Assembly: GCA_022709865.1 (NCBI GenBank)
Contig: JAKLIA010000003.1
Coordinates: 21,547 to 85,546, forward strand
Direction of reading: 5' to 3'
From: Patescibacteria group bacterium
GTDB taxonomy: Bacteria; Patescibacteriota; Minisyncoccia; Portnoybacterales; GWB1-42-6
Length of the DNA stretch: 64,000 nt
In this document: positions 1,427-39,953 of the stretch, in pieces
Position numbering within the stretch: position 1 is the stretch's first letter
Layout of the letters: every line of letters begins with the position of its first letter
Program-made: the position numbers and the translations under genes
Notes under the pieces: model-generated
Databases searched by the model: none
Seen by the model: only the letters and a program-made list of their open reading frames with translations
What the model was told of the DNA's origin: nothing

Positions 1427-1588
1427 GCTTTCTTAAGAATCAAAATTAAGGTATATAATGTTTCATGTGAAAAATATTTTTTAAGTTTCACACGAAACAA
1501 TTATTAAAATAATCTTAACAAAAAAATTAGTTTTGTTCAAATTAAAAATCTATTTCGCAACAACGAAATAGATTTTTAATTGGGCTTG

Positions 1589-1764
1589 CCCTGAGAGAGC
1601 AAAGCGAATCGAAGGGTGGACCCGGCGGGAATTGGCCGCGGCTCTCGGCTCGCCGCCGCTCGCCTCGGCCTGGCCACCGCCTCATGATTTTCTCTGATGA
1701 TAAAATCACTCCGGCGTTCGATTCCTAGCGCAAGCCAAAAAATTGGCTTGCTTGTCATTTTTTA
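1589..1764 (-). repeat. tRNA-3'-trailer-associated conserved element, copy A (downstream of tRNA-Ala-GGC). It contains hairpin GCAAGCC-N8-GGCTTGC (1730-1751), a ~92-bp GC-rich core (1633-1724) and a 21-bp direct repeat of the tRNA-Ala 3' end (1612-1632 = 1765-1785).
   Basis: The core is nearly identical to 2084-2175 and diverged but homologous to the reverse complement of 61245-61334. The repeat AAGGGTGGACCCGGCGGGAAT is exact. Confidence 0.55.
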
Positions 1765-1767
1765 AAG

Positions 1768-1840
1768 GGTGGACCCGGCGGGAATCGAACCCGCTACTCT
1801 TCCATGCCATGGAAGCATGTTACCGGTATACCACGGGCCC
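1768..1840 (-). tRNA. tRNA-Ala (anticodon GGC), G3:U70 identity pair present, no full CCA
   Basis: Acceptor GGGCCCG/CGGGTCC with a G3-U70 wobble; anticodon stem CTTCC/GGAAG with loop ATGGCAT; T-arm GCGGG-TTCGATT-CCCGC. Confidence 0.75.
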
Positions 1841-2042
1841 CCTATTTCATAATTTCTCAAGAAATTATGAGCGGACCGTTCAAAAATAGCAAAACAATTT
1901 TTGAATAGGCCTTATTCACCGATTCATTCTATAAAAAAATATTCATTCAGTCAATTGCAAAAATGTTTTATTTTTAAAAAAGTTTCGCGTGGAACTATAA
2001 AAAAATAAAAAACCCGCTGCAGCGGAATCTTTTATGGGTTTA

Positions 2043-2212
2043 CCCTGAGGAGCGTAGCGACGATGGGTGCCCCCGGAGAGAATTGGCCGCGGCTCTCGGC
2101 TCGCCGCCGCTCGCCTCGGCCTGGCCACCGCCTCATGATTTTCTCTGATGATAAAATCACTCCGGCGTTCGATTCTTGGCGCGAGCCAAGCAGTTGGCTC
2201 GCCATTATAATA
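2043..2212 (-). repeat. tRNA-3'-trailer-associated conserved element, copy B (downstream of tRNA-Arg-CCT). It contains hairpin GCGAGCC-N8-GGCTCGC (2181-2202), the core (2084-2175) and an 18-19 bp direct repeat of the tRNA-Arg 3' end (2067-2085 = 2213-2231).
   Basis: The core is ~100% identical to copy A over ~92 bp. The flanking repeat matches the 3' end of tRNA-Arg, not that of tRNA-Ala. Confidence 0.55.
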
Positions 2213-2213
2213 G

Positions 2214-2285
2214 TGCCCCCGGAGAGAATTGAACTCCCATTTCCTCCTTAGGACGGAGTAGCTCTATCCGTTGAGCTACGGGGGC
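2214..2285 (-). tRNA. tRNA-Arg (anticodon CCT), no encoded CCA
   Basis: Acceptor GCCCCCG/CGGGGGC; D-arm GCTC-AACGGATA-GAGC; anticodon loop GTCCTAA; T-arm GGGAG-TTCAATT-CTCTC. Confidence 0.75.
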
Positions 2286-2375
2286 TGGTGTTTTTTATGA
2301 TAACATTTTTTATTGATGAAAAATAGTAATTTTAAATAAAAAGAAGTTTCGGCTTGGCCGAAACTTCTGGTGTGC

Positions 2376-2705
2376 TTACTCTGCGATGATCTCTTTGAGA
2401 GAAAGAATCTCTTGGTGGCAGCTTTTAATAATTCGCTCGATAACACCGCGGTTTTTGACAGAAATATCGGACATAAGAAGCGCTAGCGATACGAACATTC
2501 GTATATGCTCAGTAGTCTTAAACATCCTGTCTTTGTCTGTATAATTTCCTTCCACGGAATCGATCAAGATGGGTTTTAGTTTTTTTGCACAGTTTAATAC
2601 TAATCCGTAAGACTCTTCTAGCGATTTTTCCGAACAAAGCCCCTCAAGGTCTTCTATGGCACTTTTTAAAAGCGGAAGCCCTAGTTTCTTCTCGTTTTTT
2701 GTCAT
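2376..2705 (-). CDS. Hypothetical 109-aa protein, possible HEPN-like fold (R-x5-H near the C-terminus)
   Basis: ORF with a downstream bidirectional hairpin terminator (2345-2366). The motif RIIKSCH sits ~15 aa from the C-terminus. No nucleotidyltransferase partner is adjacent. Confidence 0.45.
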   Translation of the reverse strand: MTKNEKKLGLPLLKSAIEDLEGLCSEKSLEESYGLVLNCAKKLKPILIDSVEGNYTDKDRMFKTTEHIRMFVSLALLMSDISVKNRGVIERIIKSCHQEILSLKEIIAE

Positions 2706-2786
2706 TATACCCTCCTTCAGAGTAATGTATTTTTAGAGAACAATGAACAATTATATTATTGCATTTTTTCTATCGTTTGTCAATAT

Positions 2787-2862
2787 TGGGGTGGTCGATG
2801 GGATTCGAACCCACAACCGCTCGGACCACAACCGAGAGCTCTGCCGTTGAGCTACGACCACC
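2787..2862 (-). tRNA. tRNA-His (anticodon GTG) with the extra G-1:C73 pair and an encoded CCA
   Basis: G-1 plus GTGGTCG/CGACCAC acceptor; anticodon stem CTCGG/CCGAG with loop TTGTGGT; T-arm GTGGG-TTCGAAT-CCCAT; the 3' end reads CCCA. Confidence 0.85.
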
Positions 2863-2909
2863 ATAACCTAAACATTTTAACATTTTTTAACAGAAAATCA
2901 AGCAGGTTT

Positions 2910-3419
2910 TTAAAGAGTATCGGTAATTTTTAATTGAAGCAGGTCTGTAGCTGTGTCGTAAACTGCGAAAGAGGAGCGGAAGATCTCGCCACTTAAATTG
3001 CCCGGGTTTATTAATCGGCAATCGTTGATTTTCTCTTCCCAGGGTTTATGGGTGTGGCCGTAGAATACCAAATTAAAATGGTTAGTTTGCGCCAGCTCCT
3101 TTGCTTTTTCGGGAAAATGAGTAAAGGCAATTTTTTTGCCGCCAATTTCAACTTGGCCGGTTTGGTCATAGAAAATAAGGTTGGCCAATTCTTTATTTTT
3201 GGCTAAATTGCCGATAGAATCTCCGTCCGTATCCATGTTGCCGATAACCAAATGAAGCTTGATTTGGGGTAGGGCTAAACTCATTTCTTTGGCAAAATCA
3301 GCCCATCCGATATCGCCGCAATGGATTATTTTCTGGATATTATTTTGTTTGGCCCAGGCGGCAAACTTGGCGAAAGCCGCGCTGTTGCCGTGGGTGTCGG
3401 AGATGATAGCAATGAGCAT
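2910..3419 (-). CDS. Metallophosphoesterase (YfcE/MJ0936 family), 169 aa
   Basis: Motifs ISDTHGN, CGDIG and FYGHTHKP are typical of the calcineurin-like phosphoesterase superfamily. Confidence 0.8.
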   Translation of the reverse strand: MLIAIISDTHGNSAAFAKFAAWAKQNNIQKIIHCGDIGWADFAKEMSLALPQIKLHLVIGNMDTDGDSIGNLAKNKELANLIFYDQTGQVEIGGKKIAFTHFPEKAKELAQTNHFNLVFYGHTHKPWEEKINDCRLINPGNLSGEIFRSSFAVYDTATDLLQLKITDTL

Positions 3420-3648
3420 GATTTTTTAAACTATATAATTATTTTACCATTAGAATCTTTTATAAGCGATAACTTTATTCTCTAAGCCATTTTCAAAGCC
3501 AGAAAAATAGGATAATATATAGGAGATTCATCTCTTATATTTTGACGTTATTCGGATGATATGCTTGCTCGCCTTGCTTTGTGAGTCGAAGCTAGCTGGC
3601 GCACCGTCCTCATTAGTCAAAATTAAGGCAAAAATAAATAACTAACCT

Positions 3649-3721
3649 GCGCCCGTAGCTCAATGGATAGAGTACTTGGCTTCGAACCAAGGGGCTGGGG
3701 GTTCGAATCCCTCCGGGCGCA
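3649..3721 (+). tRNA. tRNA-Arg (anticodon TCG), no CCA
   Basis: Acceptor GCGCCCG/CGGGCGC; D-arm GCTC-AATGGATA-GAGT; anticodon stem CTTGG/CCAAG with loop CTTCGAA; T-arm GGGGG-TTCGAAT-CCCTC. Confidence 0.8.
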
Positions 3722-3733
3722 CACTGTTTATAT

Positions 3734-4378
3734 ATGGAAGGCTTTATAAAAAAGGTTGAGCAAGTTGCCAAACAAAGATTCCAGGGAAACTCTTCTTGCC
3801 ATGACTGGGATCATGTTATCAGGGTCAGGTCTTTAGCCTTAGCCATTGGCAAAAAAGAAAAGGCTAACCTTAAAACTGTTGAAACAGCTGCCTTGCTCCA
3901 TGATATTATGCGGGCCGAAGAAGCTAGAAAAAAGGGAAAGATTTGCCATGCGTTAGCCGGTGCTCAGGAGGCGGAAAAAATACTTCTCAAGCTAGGAGAA
4001 GAGGAAAGTTTTATAAAAGCGGTTAAACATTGCATTGAGGCGCATCGGTACCGGAATAGCCATCAACCCCGATCCATTGAAGCAAAAGTATTGTCCGATG
4101 CCGATAAATTAGACGCTTTGGGCGCTATCGGCGTGGGTCGGGGTTTTATGTGGTGCGGCCATCATGGATTGAACCTGCATAATACCGACCCGAAAATCAT
4201 TAGCCAAAATAATCCGTATGATAAAAAGCATTGCCTTTATGCGGAATACCATATCAAGCTGAAGTTTCTTAAGGATAGAATGTTCACTAGGACGGGCAAA
4301 AAAATAGCGAAAGAACGCAGCGCTTTTATGGCGGAGTTCTTGAAGCGTTTAGACAGTGAGGTTAAAGGAAAATTATGA
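3734..4378 (+). CDS. HD-domain phosphohydrolase, 214 aa
   Basis: H..HD motif (WDHVIRV ... LLHDI) and a second His/Asp cluster characteristic of the HD superfamily. Confidence 0.75.
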   Translation: MEGFIKKVEQVAKQRFQGNSSCHDWDHVIRVRSLALAIGKKEKANLKTVETAALLHDIMRAEEARKKGKICHALAGAQEAEKILLKLGEEESFIKAVKHCIEAHRYRNSHQPRSIEAKVLSDADKLDALGAIGVGRGFMWCGHHGLNLHNTDPKIISQNNPYDKKHCLYAEYHIKLKFLKDRMFTRTGKKIAKERSAFMAEFLKRLDSEVKGKL

Positions 4379-5835
4379 TAATTCCCAGCGAAGTAAAAAA
4401 TATTTTAACTGAATTGCAGAAAGCGGGATTTGAAGCGTTCGCAGTTGGCGGCTGCGTGCGCGATTTGATGCTAGGCAGAAAGCCCAAGGATTGGGATGTG
4501 GCTACCAACGCAACACCCGAGCAGGTGCAAAAAATATTTCCGGCCAGTTTTTATGAAAATAAGTTTGGCACGGTGAGCGTAAAAACCGATTCAGCTAAAG
4601 ATAATTTAAAGATCATAGAGATAACAACTTATCGGGTGGATGCCCCCTATTCGGATAAGCGCCACCCCGACGAAGTCAGTTTCACGCCGAACTTAAAAGA
4701 AGATTTGGCGCGGCGCGATTTCACTATTAATGCCTTAGCTTTGGGCCTGGATAAAAAAATTATAGACCCGTTTGGCGGGCAAGAAGATTTGGCAAAAGGA
4801 TTGATTCGCGCTGTTGGTGAGGCGGAAAAGAGATTCAATGAAGATGCCTTGCGCATGCTGCGGGCTGTCCGTTTTTTTGTGGAACTTGTTTCACCGAGCT
4901 CCGTGAAACAAAGTTTCTCGATCGAAAAGAAAACCCAAGAGGCGATAAAGAAAAACGCTTTGTGGCTCCAGGCAATCGCCAAAGAAAGGATTCGCGATGA
5001 GTTTGAAAAAATAATAATGAGCGAATCTCCTAGCGAAGGAGTTTTATTGCTGCACGAACTTGGGCTGCTTCAATATATTATTCCGGAATTAGAAAAAGGC
5101 TGGGGCGTGGCGCAAAATAAACACCATATATATTCTATTTTTGAACACGGAATATTTTCTTTAAAGTTTGCCGCGCAAAAAAAATATAATTTGGTGGTGC
5201 GCCTAGCGGCGCTGTTGCATGACGTTGCTAAACCCCAGGCCAAGAGGGGAGAGGGGCCGGAAGCAACTTTTTATAACCACGACATTATGGGCGCTCGGGC
5301 AGCGGCGCGGATTTTGGAGAGACTACATTTTAGCAATGAAATTATTGAACGCGTAGCAAATATAATCCGCCATCATATGTTCGTTTATGATGTTGGTGCG
5401 GTGACAGCCGCGGCAGTGCGGCGGCTCTTGGTGCGGGTGGGGCCGGAAAATATTGACGATTTGATCGCTTTGCGCGTGGCGGACAGATTAGGTTCGGGCG
5501 TGCCCAAGGCCCAGCCGTATCGCTTGCGGCACTTTCAATATATGGTAGAGCGGGTGCAGAGCGACCCGATATCCGTGAAGATGTTAAAGATCAATGGCCA
5601 TGATTTAATGTCTACTTTGCAAATTAAGCCCGGCCCGAAAATCGGTGCGATATTAGATGTGCTGTTGGCAGAAGTAATAGAAGAGCCAACTAAAAATACT
5701 AAAGAAAAATTATCGGCTCGCGCCGGAGAATTAGATAAAGAAGATTTGGCGCAATTGCGCCAAATGGCTAAGGCGCGCATCGAAGAAGAAAAAGAGGAAG
5801 AAGACAAAATAATCAAAGGGAGATATTGGGTATAG
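4375..5835 (+). CDS. cca: CCA-adding tRNA nucleotidyltransferase / poly(A) polymerase family with a C-terminal HD domain
   Basis: GGCVRDLMLGRKPKDWDVAT and RRDFTINALA nucleotidyltransferase motifs. The start ATGA overlaps the upstream stop. Consistent with most tRNAs here lacking an encoded CCA. Confidence 0.8.
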   Translation: MIIPSEVKNILTELQKAGFEAFAVGGCVRDLMLGRKPKDWDVATNATPEQVQKIFPASFYENKFGTVSVKTDSAKDNLKIIEITTYRVDAPYSDKRHPDEVSFTPNLKEDLARRDFTINALALGLDKKIIDPFGGQEDLAKGLIRAVGEAEKRFNEDALRMLRAVRFFVELVSPSSVKQSFSIEKKTQEAIKKNALWLQAIAKERIRDEFEKIIMSESPSEGVLLLHELGLLQYIIPELEKGWGVAQNKHHIYSIFEHGIFSLKFAAQKKYNLVVRLAALLHDVAKPQAKRGEGPEATFYNHDIMGARAAARILERLHFSNEIIERVANIIRHHMFVYDVGAVTAAAVRRLLVRVGPENIDDLIALRVADRLGSGVPKAQPYRLRHFQYMVERVQSDPISVKMLKINGHDLMSTLQIKPGPKIGAILDVLLAEVIEEPTKNTKEKLSARAGELDKEDLAQLRQMAKARIEEEKEEEDKIIKGRYWV

Positions 5836-26114: not shown

Positions 26115-26185
26115 CGGGCTGTAGTGTAACGGTAGCACGAGTCCTTCGGGAGGATTTAGTCAGGGTTCAAATCCCTGCAGCCCGA
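26115..26185 (+). tRNA. tRNA-Pro (anticodon CGG), no CCA
   Basis: Acceptor CGGGCTG/CAGCCCG; anticodon stem AGTCC/GGATT with loop TTCGGGA; T-arm CAGGG-TTCAAAT-CCCTG. Confidence 0.75.
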
Positions 26186-26207
26186 CAAATATGTGTGTTA
26201 AATAATT

Positions 26208-39877: not shown

Positions 39878-39953
39878 TGGAGCGGGCGAGCAGAATCGGA
39901 CTGCCGTCTCGACCTTGGCAAGGTCGCATAATAGCCACTATACGACGCCCGCA
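39878..39953 (-). tRNA. tRNA-Gly (anticodon GCC), CCA encoded
   Basis: Acceptor GCGGGCG/CGCCCGC; anticodon stem CGACC/GGTCG with loop TTGCCAA. Confidence 0.8.

Follow-up and report, generated by a model that had tools for sequence, protein, structure and literature searches.

What is the short conserved element that stands behind two different tRNA genes of a Patescibacteria group bacterium, each copy being followed by a repeat of the 3' end of its own tRNA? The two copies had been picked out in an earlier reading (hereafter the original prediction) of a 64,000-nucleotide (nt) stretch of contig JAKLIA010000003.1 (assembly GCA_022709865.1, positions 21,547 to 85,546 of the forward strand). The whole of this stretch is referred to here as the window, with coordinates counted from its first letter, and loci outside it carry L numbers. 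The element belongs to a previously uncatalogued repeat family, which we would place with tRNA-targeting mobile DNA. Directly established are the position of the insert, its fold and the covariation that accompanies it, a closing helix (P1) derived from the target, a preference for certain T-loops, and turnover between relatives. We consider the chances about even that the element is, more precisely, a miniature non-autonomous mobile insertion specific for the T-loop and 3' end of tRNA genes, with target recognition based on pairing.

Copies in the window and the site of insertion

Both terminal repeats of the original prediction proved exact: positions 1612-1632 and 1765-1785 at tRNA-Ala(GGC) agree in 21/21 nt (AAGGGTGGACCCGGCGGGAAT), and positions 2067-2085 and 2213-2231 at tRNA-Arg(CCT) in 19/19 (GTGCCCCCGGAGAGAATTG). 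The two cores, thought to be nearly identical, are indeed the same core and in fact agree in 92/92 positions (1633-1724 and 2084-2175); a 31-nt core probe matched the window twice, against 0 matches expected. The core does begin with the reverse complement of the T-loop (GAATCGAAC), and the proposed selection on structure is borne out by the hairpins, here termed P0 (1730-1751 and 2181-2202), which differ by compensatory changes. Both elements lie downstream, in tRNA sense, of minus-strand tRNAs. The count of two copies in the window had missed a third, at 61200-61353 (+) behind tRNA-Glu(TTC), which scores 108.6 bits with a covariance model (cmsearch); a filter-free scan of the window with this model gave no decayed or further copies beyond the three. 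Copy 1 (Ala) and copy 2 (Arg) are 100% identical from GAAUCG through CAAUUC. The block thus shared by the Ala copy contains CAATTC, and the T-loop of tRNA-Ala reads CGATT; because the two differ at nt 57, the Ala repeat begins at A58.

The repeat of the tRNA 3' terminus, put at 18-21 nt in the original prediction, was borne out with two corrections: its modal extent is 19 nt, nt 56-74 of the tRNA, and the insert lies within the gene, at nt 55/56. The repeat stops sharply at the tRNA gene end in at least 14 loci, and nt 56-73 are identical between the proximal and distal copies in 17/24 loci; C74 is uninformative for the repeat end because 14/15 window tRNA genes encode it (e.g., 3649-3722 and 26115-26186). 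The distal copy keeps the CCA of tRNA-His (L010 filled, window empty), the CCAAU of tRNA-Gly(GCC) (L034 filled, window empty), the trailer that stands directly behind tRNA-Ala in L010, and the AAUU.. trailer of tRNA-Glu. Because these CCA ends and trailers match element-free orthologous sites, the distal copy is the original 3' end, and the insert is therefore a unit of nt 56-74 copy, spacer, P0, and core placed between nt 55 and 56. A functional tRNA is made up by the upstream copy, and the ancestral 3' end now lies further downstream, together with its CCA and trailer. In loci where the two copies have diverged, pairing is intact in the proximal copy and the decay is in the distal one (L019, L030, L029-1, and L036; L011 is mixed). 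Longer repeats were found in L009 (30 nt), L017 (42 nt), and L012 and L024 (80-82 nt).

The sequences behind the distal repeats at 1581-1611 and 2035-2066 are similar to each other and are probably, judging from their occurrence elsewhere, the native tRNA trailer type of the lineage. We rejected this tail as a part of the element, since the same motif occurs at element-free tRNA-Ala (L010) and tRNA-Glu (L055). The motif, CC(C/A)(U/A)UC..UCGCU..GCUC with a small hairpin, lies directly behind several tRNAs of the lineage, element present or absent (the two window sites, L010 6321-6350, and L055 ~1500-1540). The trailer of window copy 1 also holds UUCGAUUC, which could pair with the guide strand described below.

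A repeat family of tRNA genes

Exact-pattern scans designed after the first metagenome relative (L009) gave 29 genome loci, 5 of which (L018, L026, L028, L032, and L035) are chance matches in high-GC genomes. With cmsearch, 31 true copies were recovered at 68-125 bits, in about 26 loci of eight lineages of the candidate phyla radiation (CPR). The metagenome-assembled genomes (MAGs) in question are labelled Portnoy-, Nealson-, Uhr-, Magasanik-, and Moranbacteria, Paceibacterota, Saccharibacteria, and 'Parcubacteria'; a few loci carry the label Gammaproteobacteria, and we infer that these are mis-binned because their tRNA synteny and element match Uhrbacteria loci. The further core copies near tRNAs that the original prediction had asked for were thus found, and every copy with upstream sequence sits behind a co-oriented tRNA, so that its picture of a recurrent element that goes with tRNA 3' ends and repeats the terminus of its own tRNA holds for a family of 31 copies. 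At least 14 tRNA species serve as hosts: Ala(GGC, CGC), Arg(CCT, TCT, GCG), Glu(TTC, CTC), Gly(CCC, GCC), His, Lys, Leu(CAA), Pro, and Gln. The same core subtype occurs at different tRNAs within one genome, and tandem units are found in L027 and L037.

Rfam 15, run at the gathering threshold on the window and seven other loci, returned only tRNA matches, and in E-value mode it gave the core nothing better than E ~2; no known RNA family matches the core, group I and II introns, tmRNA, ribozymes, T-box, and motifs of the HEARO or omega-RNA type included. The element had no match among INPHARED phages, PLSDB plasmids, or IMG/VR, where 20-mer matches, like 2/3 of the metagenome matches, had arisen by chance in contigs of high GC. 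Looking up identical proteins in order to find population variants yielded identical sequence only. A full-text search of the literature found no description of such an element, the nearest being group I introns in CPR tRNAs (PMC13011429), which are unrelated to it.

A covarying three-way junction

The insert measures 150-190 bp, of which a three-way junction of helices P1, P2, and P3 takes up ~105 nt. In tRNA sense, the tRNA is complete to C74 and is followed by an A-rich spacer of 10-17 nt, hairpin P0 (usual between spacer and junction, not universal), a 2-5-nt linker, and the P1 5' strand (x)GGAAUC, after which comes junction GAA. P2 consists of CGCC/GGCG, an internal loop GGA/GA, and a variable hairpin with loop ANCA; after junction GU, P3 consists of GGCC/GGCC, an A/GA loop, and a variable hairpin, often with tandem G.A pairs. 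The P1 3' strand GAUUCC(x) follows P3 without a linker and is at the same time nt 57-62 of the second tRNA 3' copy, which goes on over the 3' strands of T-stem and acceptor as far as N73-C74, where the native CCA or trailer and the terminator take over; the distal part of copy 1 is built in this way, from the P1 3' strand, the T-stem and acceptor 3' strands, and ACC CTT. The junction between core and tRNA copy (..GGC|C56) sits within helix P3a. No partner for the acceptor 3' strand was found inside the element. The original prediction of a conserved ~92-bp core plus a hairpin is thereby confirmed, and what it had missed is the covarying three-way junction with a closing helix built from the target.

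In a model-based alignment of the 31 copies, 97.2% of pair cells are standard, versus 84% in shuffles and 24-43% with slid partners, and 0/500 shuffles reached the observed pairing values. Both sides have changed in 13/26 pairs, with 101 compensatory cells. The P2 and P3 hairpins are wholly different between subtypes (AU-rich versus GC-rich) and still paired: in window copy 3, they are unlike those of copies 1 and 2 with pairing kept, including a compensatory GGCU/AGCC in P3a. A search of genome contigs with a 26-mer from the GC hairpin found nothing because P3 is variable. Concerning the strand, there is moderate support for the fold on the tRNA-sense strand, where 13 cells are disruptive, versus 27 on the opposite strand, and where nine G.A/A.G cells occur as tandem pairs; the counts of G.U (14) versus A.C (9) cells and the hairpin energies are weakly informative on this point, and promoter scans were uninformative.

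Helix P1 and the occupied tRNAs

The P1 5' strand together with AAC is the reverse complement of T-arm nt 53-6x, and we refer to it as the guide. In copy 1, its complement comprises T-loop nt 53-60 and T-stem nt 61-62. P1 extends 1-5 nt into tRNA-specific sequence (mean 2.23 versus 1.67 for non-cognate pairings; permutation p ~0.001), and the first tRNA-specific pair is GC in 24 copies, AU in 5, and GU in 2, never a mismatch. The nucleotide 5' of GAAUCG is G opposite C62 in the Ala copy and A opposite U62 in the Arg copy, despite the identical 92-nt block of the two. At the tRNA-Pro copy (L029), the T-loop CGAGU is matched by the guide GGAGAC-GAG. T-loop nt 56-60 read CGAUU in 21/23 occupied tRNAs versus 6/41 unoccupied tRNAs of the same loci, a comparison subject to ascertainment bias; in the window, tRNAs with a T-loop ending in AUU are occupied in 3/5 cases and other tRNAs in 0/10.

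Some tRNAs and one further element bear on the same theme. The tRNA-Gly(GCC) of the window (39878-39952, -) has the T-loop UCCGAUU, with C55 for the near-universal U. Since the L034 orthologue carries the element, this C55, which adjoins the insertion point, could represent a resistant allele or a footprint. The tRNA-Val(TAC) of L034 (6348-6421, -) has the T-loop UCCAAAU. A second, shorter element type with the same P0 hairpin and a different core lies in tandem, with period 123, at L010 6611-6889. A mini tRNA-like sequence of 49 nt precedes it, the partner of its guide GGUGGGAG is CUCCCACC in the repeated tRNA-like 3' end (T-loop CGACU), and a stretch of N comes after the element.

Turnover between related genomes

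Comparison of orthologous loci in relatives, which the original prediction had suggested, revealed both empty and decayed sites. L010, whose CCA-adding enzyme is 80% identical to that of the window, is empty at Ala(GGC) and Arg(CCT), both filled in the window, and filled at tRNA-His, which is empty in the window; at Gly(GCC), L034 carries the element and the window does not. The tsaD/tRNA-Glu(TTC) locus is occupied in the window; L054 (TsaD 91% identical) has the same spacer and P0 with a different guide and P2 subtype; L056 and L057 (69%) retain a core reduced to 86 nt by an internal deletion, along with one more fragment of a tRNA end; and L055 (76%) is an empty site with the trailer directly behind tRNA-CCA. 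The trailer of window copy 3 resembles that of L056. This record of gain, loss, core replacement, and decay favors a selfish element over a fixed host function. Contigs of relatives end within the tRNA or the core, as they do at repeats; contig ends inside tRNA-Glu or the core were seen at L053 1-60, L054 1-40, and L059 1-70, on contigs of close relatives and of other samples of the same strain.

Cargo and recombinases

No open reading frame (ORF) lies inside the 150-190-bp copies. Of ~30 copies, only L029 (3.8 kb) and L011 (0.8 kb) have cargo of kilobase size between the repeats. The 3.8 kb of L029 lie between two cores and encode a 905-amino-acid (aa) ORF without a Pfam match and a CAP-domain protein. 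The resident tRNA is not matched by the first distal fragment, and the layout could have arisen by homologous recombination between element copies. L011 carries a 230-aa ORF of a family with 128 database matches, all from CPR and many on ~1-kb contigs, which has an N-terminal helix-turn-helix, no other Pfam domain, and weak similarity to the intein portion of an RFC model. We rejected this ORF as the mobilizing enzyme, as its family lies behind tRNAs in many genomes without the core; the family is possibly a separate, free-standing tRNA-associated gene resembling homing endonucleases. The ORF behind the truncated core of L023 has no Pfam match. A tblastn search for Xer-type recombinases, made with one query type only, matched at L009 only, where a XerC/D-type gene adjoins the element-bearing tRNA-Arg outside the repeats. 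ORFs for RNA-guided proteins (TnpB/IscB or IS110) were not found within or beside the copies, whose neighbors are housekeeping genes.

Comparison with known systems

The likenesses discussed here rest on general knowledge of the families concerned. Islands and prophages that integrate at the T-loop (tyrosine integrases; the sublocation classes of Williams 2002; tycheposons) insert inside the tRNA gene as the element does, and they share with it the direct repeat that starts in the T-loop and extends to the 3' end, the restoration of the tRNA by its upstream copy, the displaced native end, and the growth of arrays by accretion. In contrast to them, the element has no integrase inside it and usually no cargo, kilobase-sized cargo between the repeats included, and it is one folded module for at least 14 tRNAs that holds an inverted, covarying copy of its target. 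The original prediction that this is no ordinary integrase island is upheld by the size of the insert, the usual lack of cargo, and the absence of a nearby integrase except for the Xer-like gene of L009. MITEs, or miniature inverted-repeat transposable elements, are likewise small, non-coding, multi-copy, and structured, with presence/absence polymorphism and assembly breaks, and terminal inverted repeats (GGAAUCG...CGAUUCC) close the core of the element in all copies. Unlike those of MITEs, however, this inverted repeat is made of target sequence, there is a single target class, no defined left end, and no parent transposon, and the flanking repeat is gene-specific and far longer than the usual duplications of 2-10 nt (19 nt in most loci and 22-82 nt in others).

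Integron attC sites and the CTX-phi attP(+) hairpin also keep structure over sequence, have a stem that mimics the target beside unpaired bases, and occur as small promoterless units, empty or loaded, stacked in arrays at one site. The element differs from them in being a three-way junction rather than a hairpin, in targeting the tRNA T-arm, in the high conservation of its junction sequence, and in that no IntI or Xer association was shown, no search for IntI having been made; its ATCGAAC/GTTCGAT match the attC core sites RYYYAAC/GTTRRRY at 6/7 positions each, which is a resemblance only. Scaffolds joined to stretches complementary to the insertion site are further known from the omega-RNA of IS200/IS605 TnpB, the IS110 bridge RNA, and the exon- and intron-binding sites (EBS/IBS) of group II introns. 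The layout of omega-RNA, scaffold followed by flanking target sequence, is similar, and in the element a guide change tracks a target change. In contrast to these guide-bearing RNAs, the element has a long target-derived repeat and no gene for TnpB, an IS110 recombinase, or reverse transcriptase (RT), nor an Rfam match. It also differs from a group I intron in a tRNA, since RF00028 does not match and the upstream tRNA is complete without splicing. Of the features that define these families, no integrase belonging to the element, parent transposon, Rfam match, or gene for a guide-dependent protein was found.

A proposed mobile insertion and its alternatives

The original prediction had left the choice between a MITE-like element, a retro-type element, and a tRNA-trailer module; the mobile options fit best, as occupancy varies and empty and decayed sites exist, and a retro-type origin is unsupported, no RT having been found. 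In the reading that we favor, a miniature insertion specific for the T-loop and tRNA 3' end, the three-way junction would be a cis-acting recognition module that folds when single-stranded, as RNA or single-stranded DNA, more likely on the tRNA-sense strand. Its guide (1-5 tRNA-specific nt, GAAUCG, and AAC) would pair with nt 53-64 of the target T-arm and, because there is no linker between P3 and P1, the pairing would set the element 3' end (..GGC) against C56, which is the observed junction; the contiguity of P3a and P1 may reflect the geometry of a splinted nick or a strand-transfer product. The 19-nt repeat would most likely be copied from the target at insertion, in the manner of a long target-site duplication, keeping a single-copy tRNA functional, and this would explain why the repeat always fits the resident tRNA although identical cores occupy different tRNAs. 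In an alternative account of the repeat, the element carries a 3' end of its own and swaps it by site-specific or homeologous recombination, which calls for a fresh 19-mer whenever the target changes. Movement would require an enzyme in trans. Copies within a genome may be homogenized by gene conversion of the core block, and decay or loss may proceed via recombination between the repeats: the P0 hairpins and trailers of the Ala and Arg copies have diverged, and the cores are 100% identical, down to the mismatching CAAUUC, which together points to gene conversion or replacement of the core block alone.

Several observations weigh against this reading. No transposase, integrase, or RT lies beside any copy, save for the Xer-like gene of L009, and neither the 29 genome loci nor the searches of viral, phage, and plasmid collections yielded an autonomous relative with shared ends. 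The left junction is variable, with no defined left terminus, and to our knowledge a 19-bp target duplication is longer than any known for DNA transposases. The simple model does not predict the A-X-A layout of L012 and L024, in which A extends from nt 56 over trailer, P0, and guide, and X comprises P2 and P3 only, and the distal fragments of L011 and L029, which differ from the resident tRNA, are easier to explain by a 3' end carried on the element than by duplication of the target. That GAAUCGAACGCCGG and GGCGGUGGCC do not vary is in part a product of the exact search pattern; the copies found with the model (window copy 3, the tRNA-Pro copy of L029, and L054) vary at these positions. Two further points, which also belong to rival explanations, are the antisense terminators at P0 and the retention of the insertion at Arg(GCG), both taken up below.

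A tentative extension, which we think improbable, is that the element is a nucleic-acid-guided insertion module, whose guide docks on the T-loop and T-stem of the target and so completes P1 and P3a, with the element 3' end abutting C56. The strand might then be joined at C56 by a host ligase, a recombinase, or the RNA itself, and changing a few guide nucleotides would retarget the module to another tRNA. It is equally improbable that the element is a structured trailer RNA of benefit to the host, acting in tRNA processing, quality control, or regulation, or as a decoy or landing pad that shields the T-loop target from nucleases and integrating elements. The strong covariation would be expected of such an RNA, as would purine-rich loops and tandem G.A pairs on the tRNA-sense strand, and co-transcription is possible where the tRNA's own terminator comes after the element. 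The distal copy, still identical to the tRNA in 17/24 loci, points the same way, as does the foreign-looking block of L029, which stands behind a mini copy and leaves the tRNA undamaged. The orthologous insertion at tRNA-Arg(GCG), kept with an intact structure in seven Moranbacteria-type genomes, is a case of long retention that could mean a host function. However, orthologous occupancy differs between relatives, with empty and internally deleted versions, a terminator stands between tRNA and element in many loci, the acceptor 3' strand has no partner in the element, and several copies per genome sit at unrelated tRNAs.

The remaining explanations appear weaker. Inert scars of larger T-loop-integrating islands or phages, consisting of attL/attR and arms with the interior lost, would account for the direct repeat from the T-loop to the tRNA 3' end, which after Williams 2002 is said to be the classic signature of T-loop-integrating elements, and for the 3.8 kb between the cores of L029, the ORF inside L011, and the Xer-like recombinase beside the L009 copies. 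We nevertheless regard scars as distinctly unlikely given the compact layout, with P0 a few nucleotides from P1, in ~25 independent loci, covarying helices that are unexpected for protein-binding arms, the occurrence of one core subtype at different tRNAs of one genome, the lack of an integrase (Xer-type query) in loci other than L009, and the lack of matches in phage, plasmid, and viral collections. An intron-like or ribozyme element, with the guide acting as an internal guide sequence across 55/56 and with transesterification or splinted ligation, is very unlikely. Its upstream tRNA is complete and needs no splicing, reverse splicing makes no 19-nt duplication, and ~105 nt without an Rfam intron match is far under known self-splicing introns, even though the guide can pair on either side of the insertion (AAC with G53-U55 and xGGAAUCG with C56-N62), the absence of a P3a-P1 linker and the position of GGC|C56 within P3a give a nicked-helix geometry, an ORF resembling homing endonucleases lies inside the L011 copy, and group I introns abound in the tRNA genes of CPR (PMC13011429; L051). 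Slightly less credible still, and the least so of those weighed, is an antisense guide-type RNA that directs a protein and comprises 19 nt complementary to the tRNA 3' end, a scaffold, and P0 with a U-run as terminator. P0 with its T-run does score as an antisense intrinsic terminator in 2/3 window copies (1730-1760, +, and 61208-61238, -), AAAAGC precedes P0 in several loci, and the order of guide, scaffold, and terminator is that of single-guide RNAs and omega-RNA. On the antisense strand, however, the G.A pairs and purine loops become pyrimidine mismatches, which gives the 27 disruptive cells noted above, many P0 hairpins have no T-run, and there is neither a conserved promoter position nor an associated nuclease gene.

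Implications

CPR bacteria have tiny genomes with single-copy tRNAs, yet the insert is present in as many as a fifth of the tRNA genes seen here. If the mobile reading is correct, the family is an undescribed, widespread class of repeats that shapes tRNA loci, breaks assemblies, and gives portable homology for rearrangements, and its mode of insertion is a way to invade an essential gene without killing it. The target-complementary helix and the zero-linker junction would make pairing-based target choice testable in a module of ~105 nt, which would be of interest for RNA- or DNA-guided insertion tools, and guided insertion, if true, would define a new and very small class of programmable, target-restoring mobile element. 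At a minimum, the family is a covariation-supported structured element for RNA and repeat libraries, to be masked in tRNA and island annotation.

Genomic surroundings and coordinates

The window is ordinary cellular DNA of a Patescibacteria-like organism, with 43% G+C, and the elements in it have housekeeping genes as neighbors. It encodes LeuRS, MetRS, GyrA, TGT, TsaD, and a CCA-adding enzyme (gene at 4375-5835) that is 80% identical to the enzyme of a Portnoybacteria MAG. Only 4/15 window tRNA genes encode the full CCA, namely, His, Gly-GCC, Leu-GAG, and Val-GAC. Between tRNA-His and tRNA-Arg(CCT) lies a 109-aa ORF (2376-2705, -) that public assemblies annotate as a gene and that has neither a Pfam match nor a homologue in the related loci. 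The coordinates of the features are collected in Table 1.

Table 1. Parts of the three window copies with their tRNAs and trailers, and positions of the tRNA-associated ORF family at other loci.
Feature	Coordinates	Strand	Basis or remark
tRNA-Ala(GGC)	1768-1840	-	ARAGORN and Rfam; acceptor pairing 7/7, T-stem 5/5
tRNA-Ala nt 56-74, proximal repeat copy	1769-1787	-	completes functional tRNA
Copy 1, A-rich spacer from tRNA to P0	1752-1767	-	
Copy 1, hairpin P0, GCAAGCCAA-UUUU-UUGGCUUGC	1730-1751	-	inverted repeat; compensatory versus copies 2 and 3 and other loci
Copy 1, linker, P1 5' strand (guide AGGAAUCG), and junction GAA	1717-1729	-	
Copy 1, arm P2: CGCC/GGCG, internal loop GGA/GA, variable hairpin	1678-1716	-	covariation
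Copy 1, arm P3: GGCC/GGCC, A/GA loop, hairpin with tandem G.A pairs	1634-1675	-	
Copy 1, distal tRNA 3' part (displaced native end)	1612-1634	-	exact repeat; trailer of L010 tRNA-Ala comes next
Native tRNA-Ala trailer (1581-1611) and rho-independent terminator hairpin (1540-1581)	1540-1611	-	
tRNA-Arg(CCT), T-loop UUCAAUU	2213-2285	-	nt 56-74 = proximal repeat 2213-2231
Copy 2, spacer (2203-2212) and hairpin P0 (2181-2202)	2181-2212	-	
Copy 2, three-way-junction core: guide AAGAAUCG (2168-2177), P2 (2129-2167), P3 (2085-2126)	2085-2180	-	
Copy 2, distal tRNA-Arg nt 56-74	2067-2085	-	exact 19-nt repeat
Copy 2, trailer (2035-2066) and terminator (1999-2026)	1999-2066	-	
tRNA-Glu(TTC)	61127-61199	+	nt 56-74 = proximal repeat 61181-61199
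Copy 3, spacer (61200-61216) and P0 (61217-61238)	61200-61238	+	P0 identical to copy 2 P0
Copy 3, three-way-junction core: guide GGGGAAUC, P2 (61253-61291), P3 (61294-61335)	61239-61335	+	
Copy 3, distal tRNA-Glu nt 56-74, then native trailer AAUUUU...	61335-61353	+	exact 19-nt repeat
220-235-aa ORF family downstream of tRNAs (Glu, Val/Phe)	L011 5457-6149; L034 5624-6256(-); L010 5614-6216; L043 3001-3684; L051 3001-3699		

At L051 2640-2932, a tRNA-Phe(GAA) that ARAGORN does not call is interrupted in the anticodon loop by an insert of ~250 nt, presumably a group I intron as described for Patescibacteria. In a comparison of window 2200-5835 with L010 860-4141, the gene pair for an HD protein and the CCA-adding enzyme is inverted relative to the tRNA-His/Arg(CCT) cluster, and the breakpoints of this inversion lie at tRNA genes that carry the element in the window or in L010.

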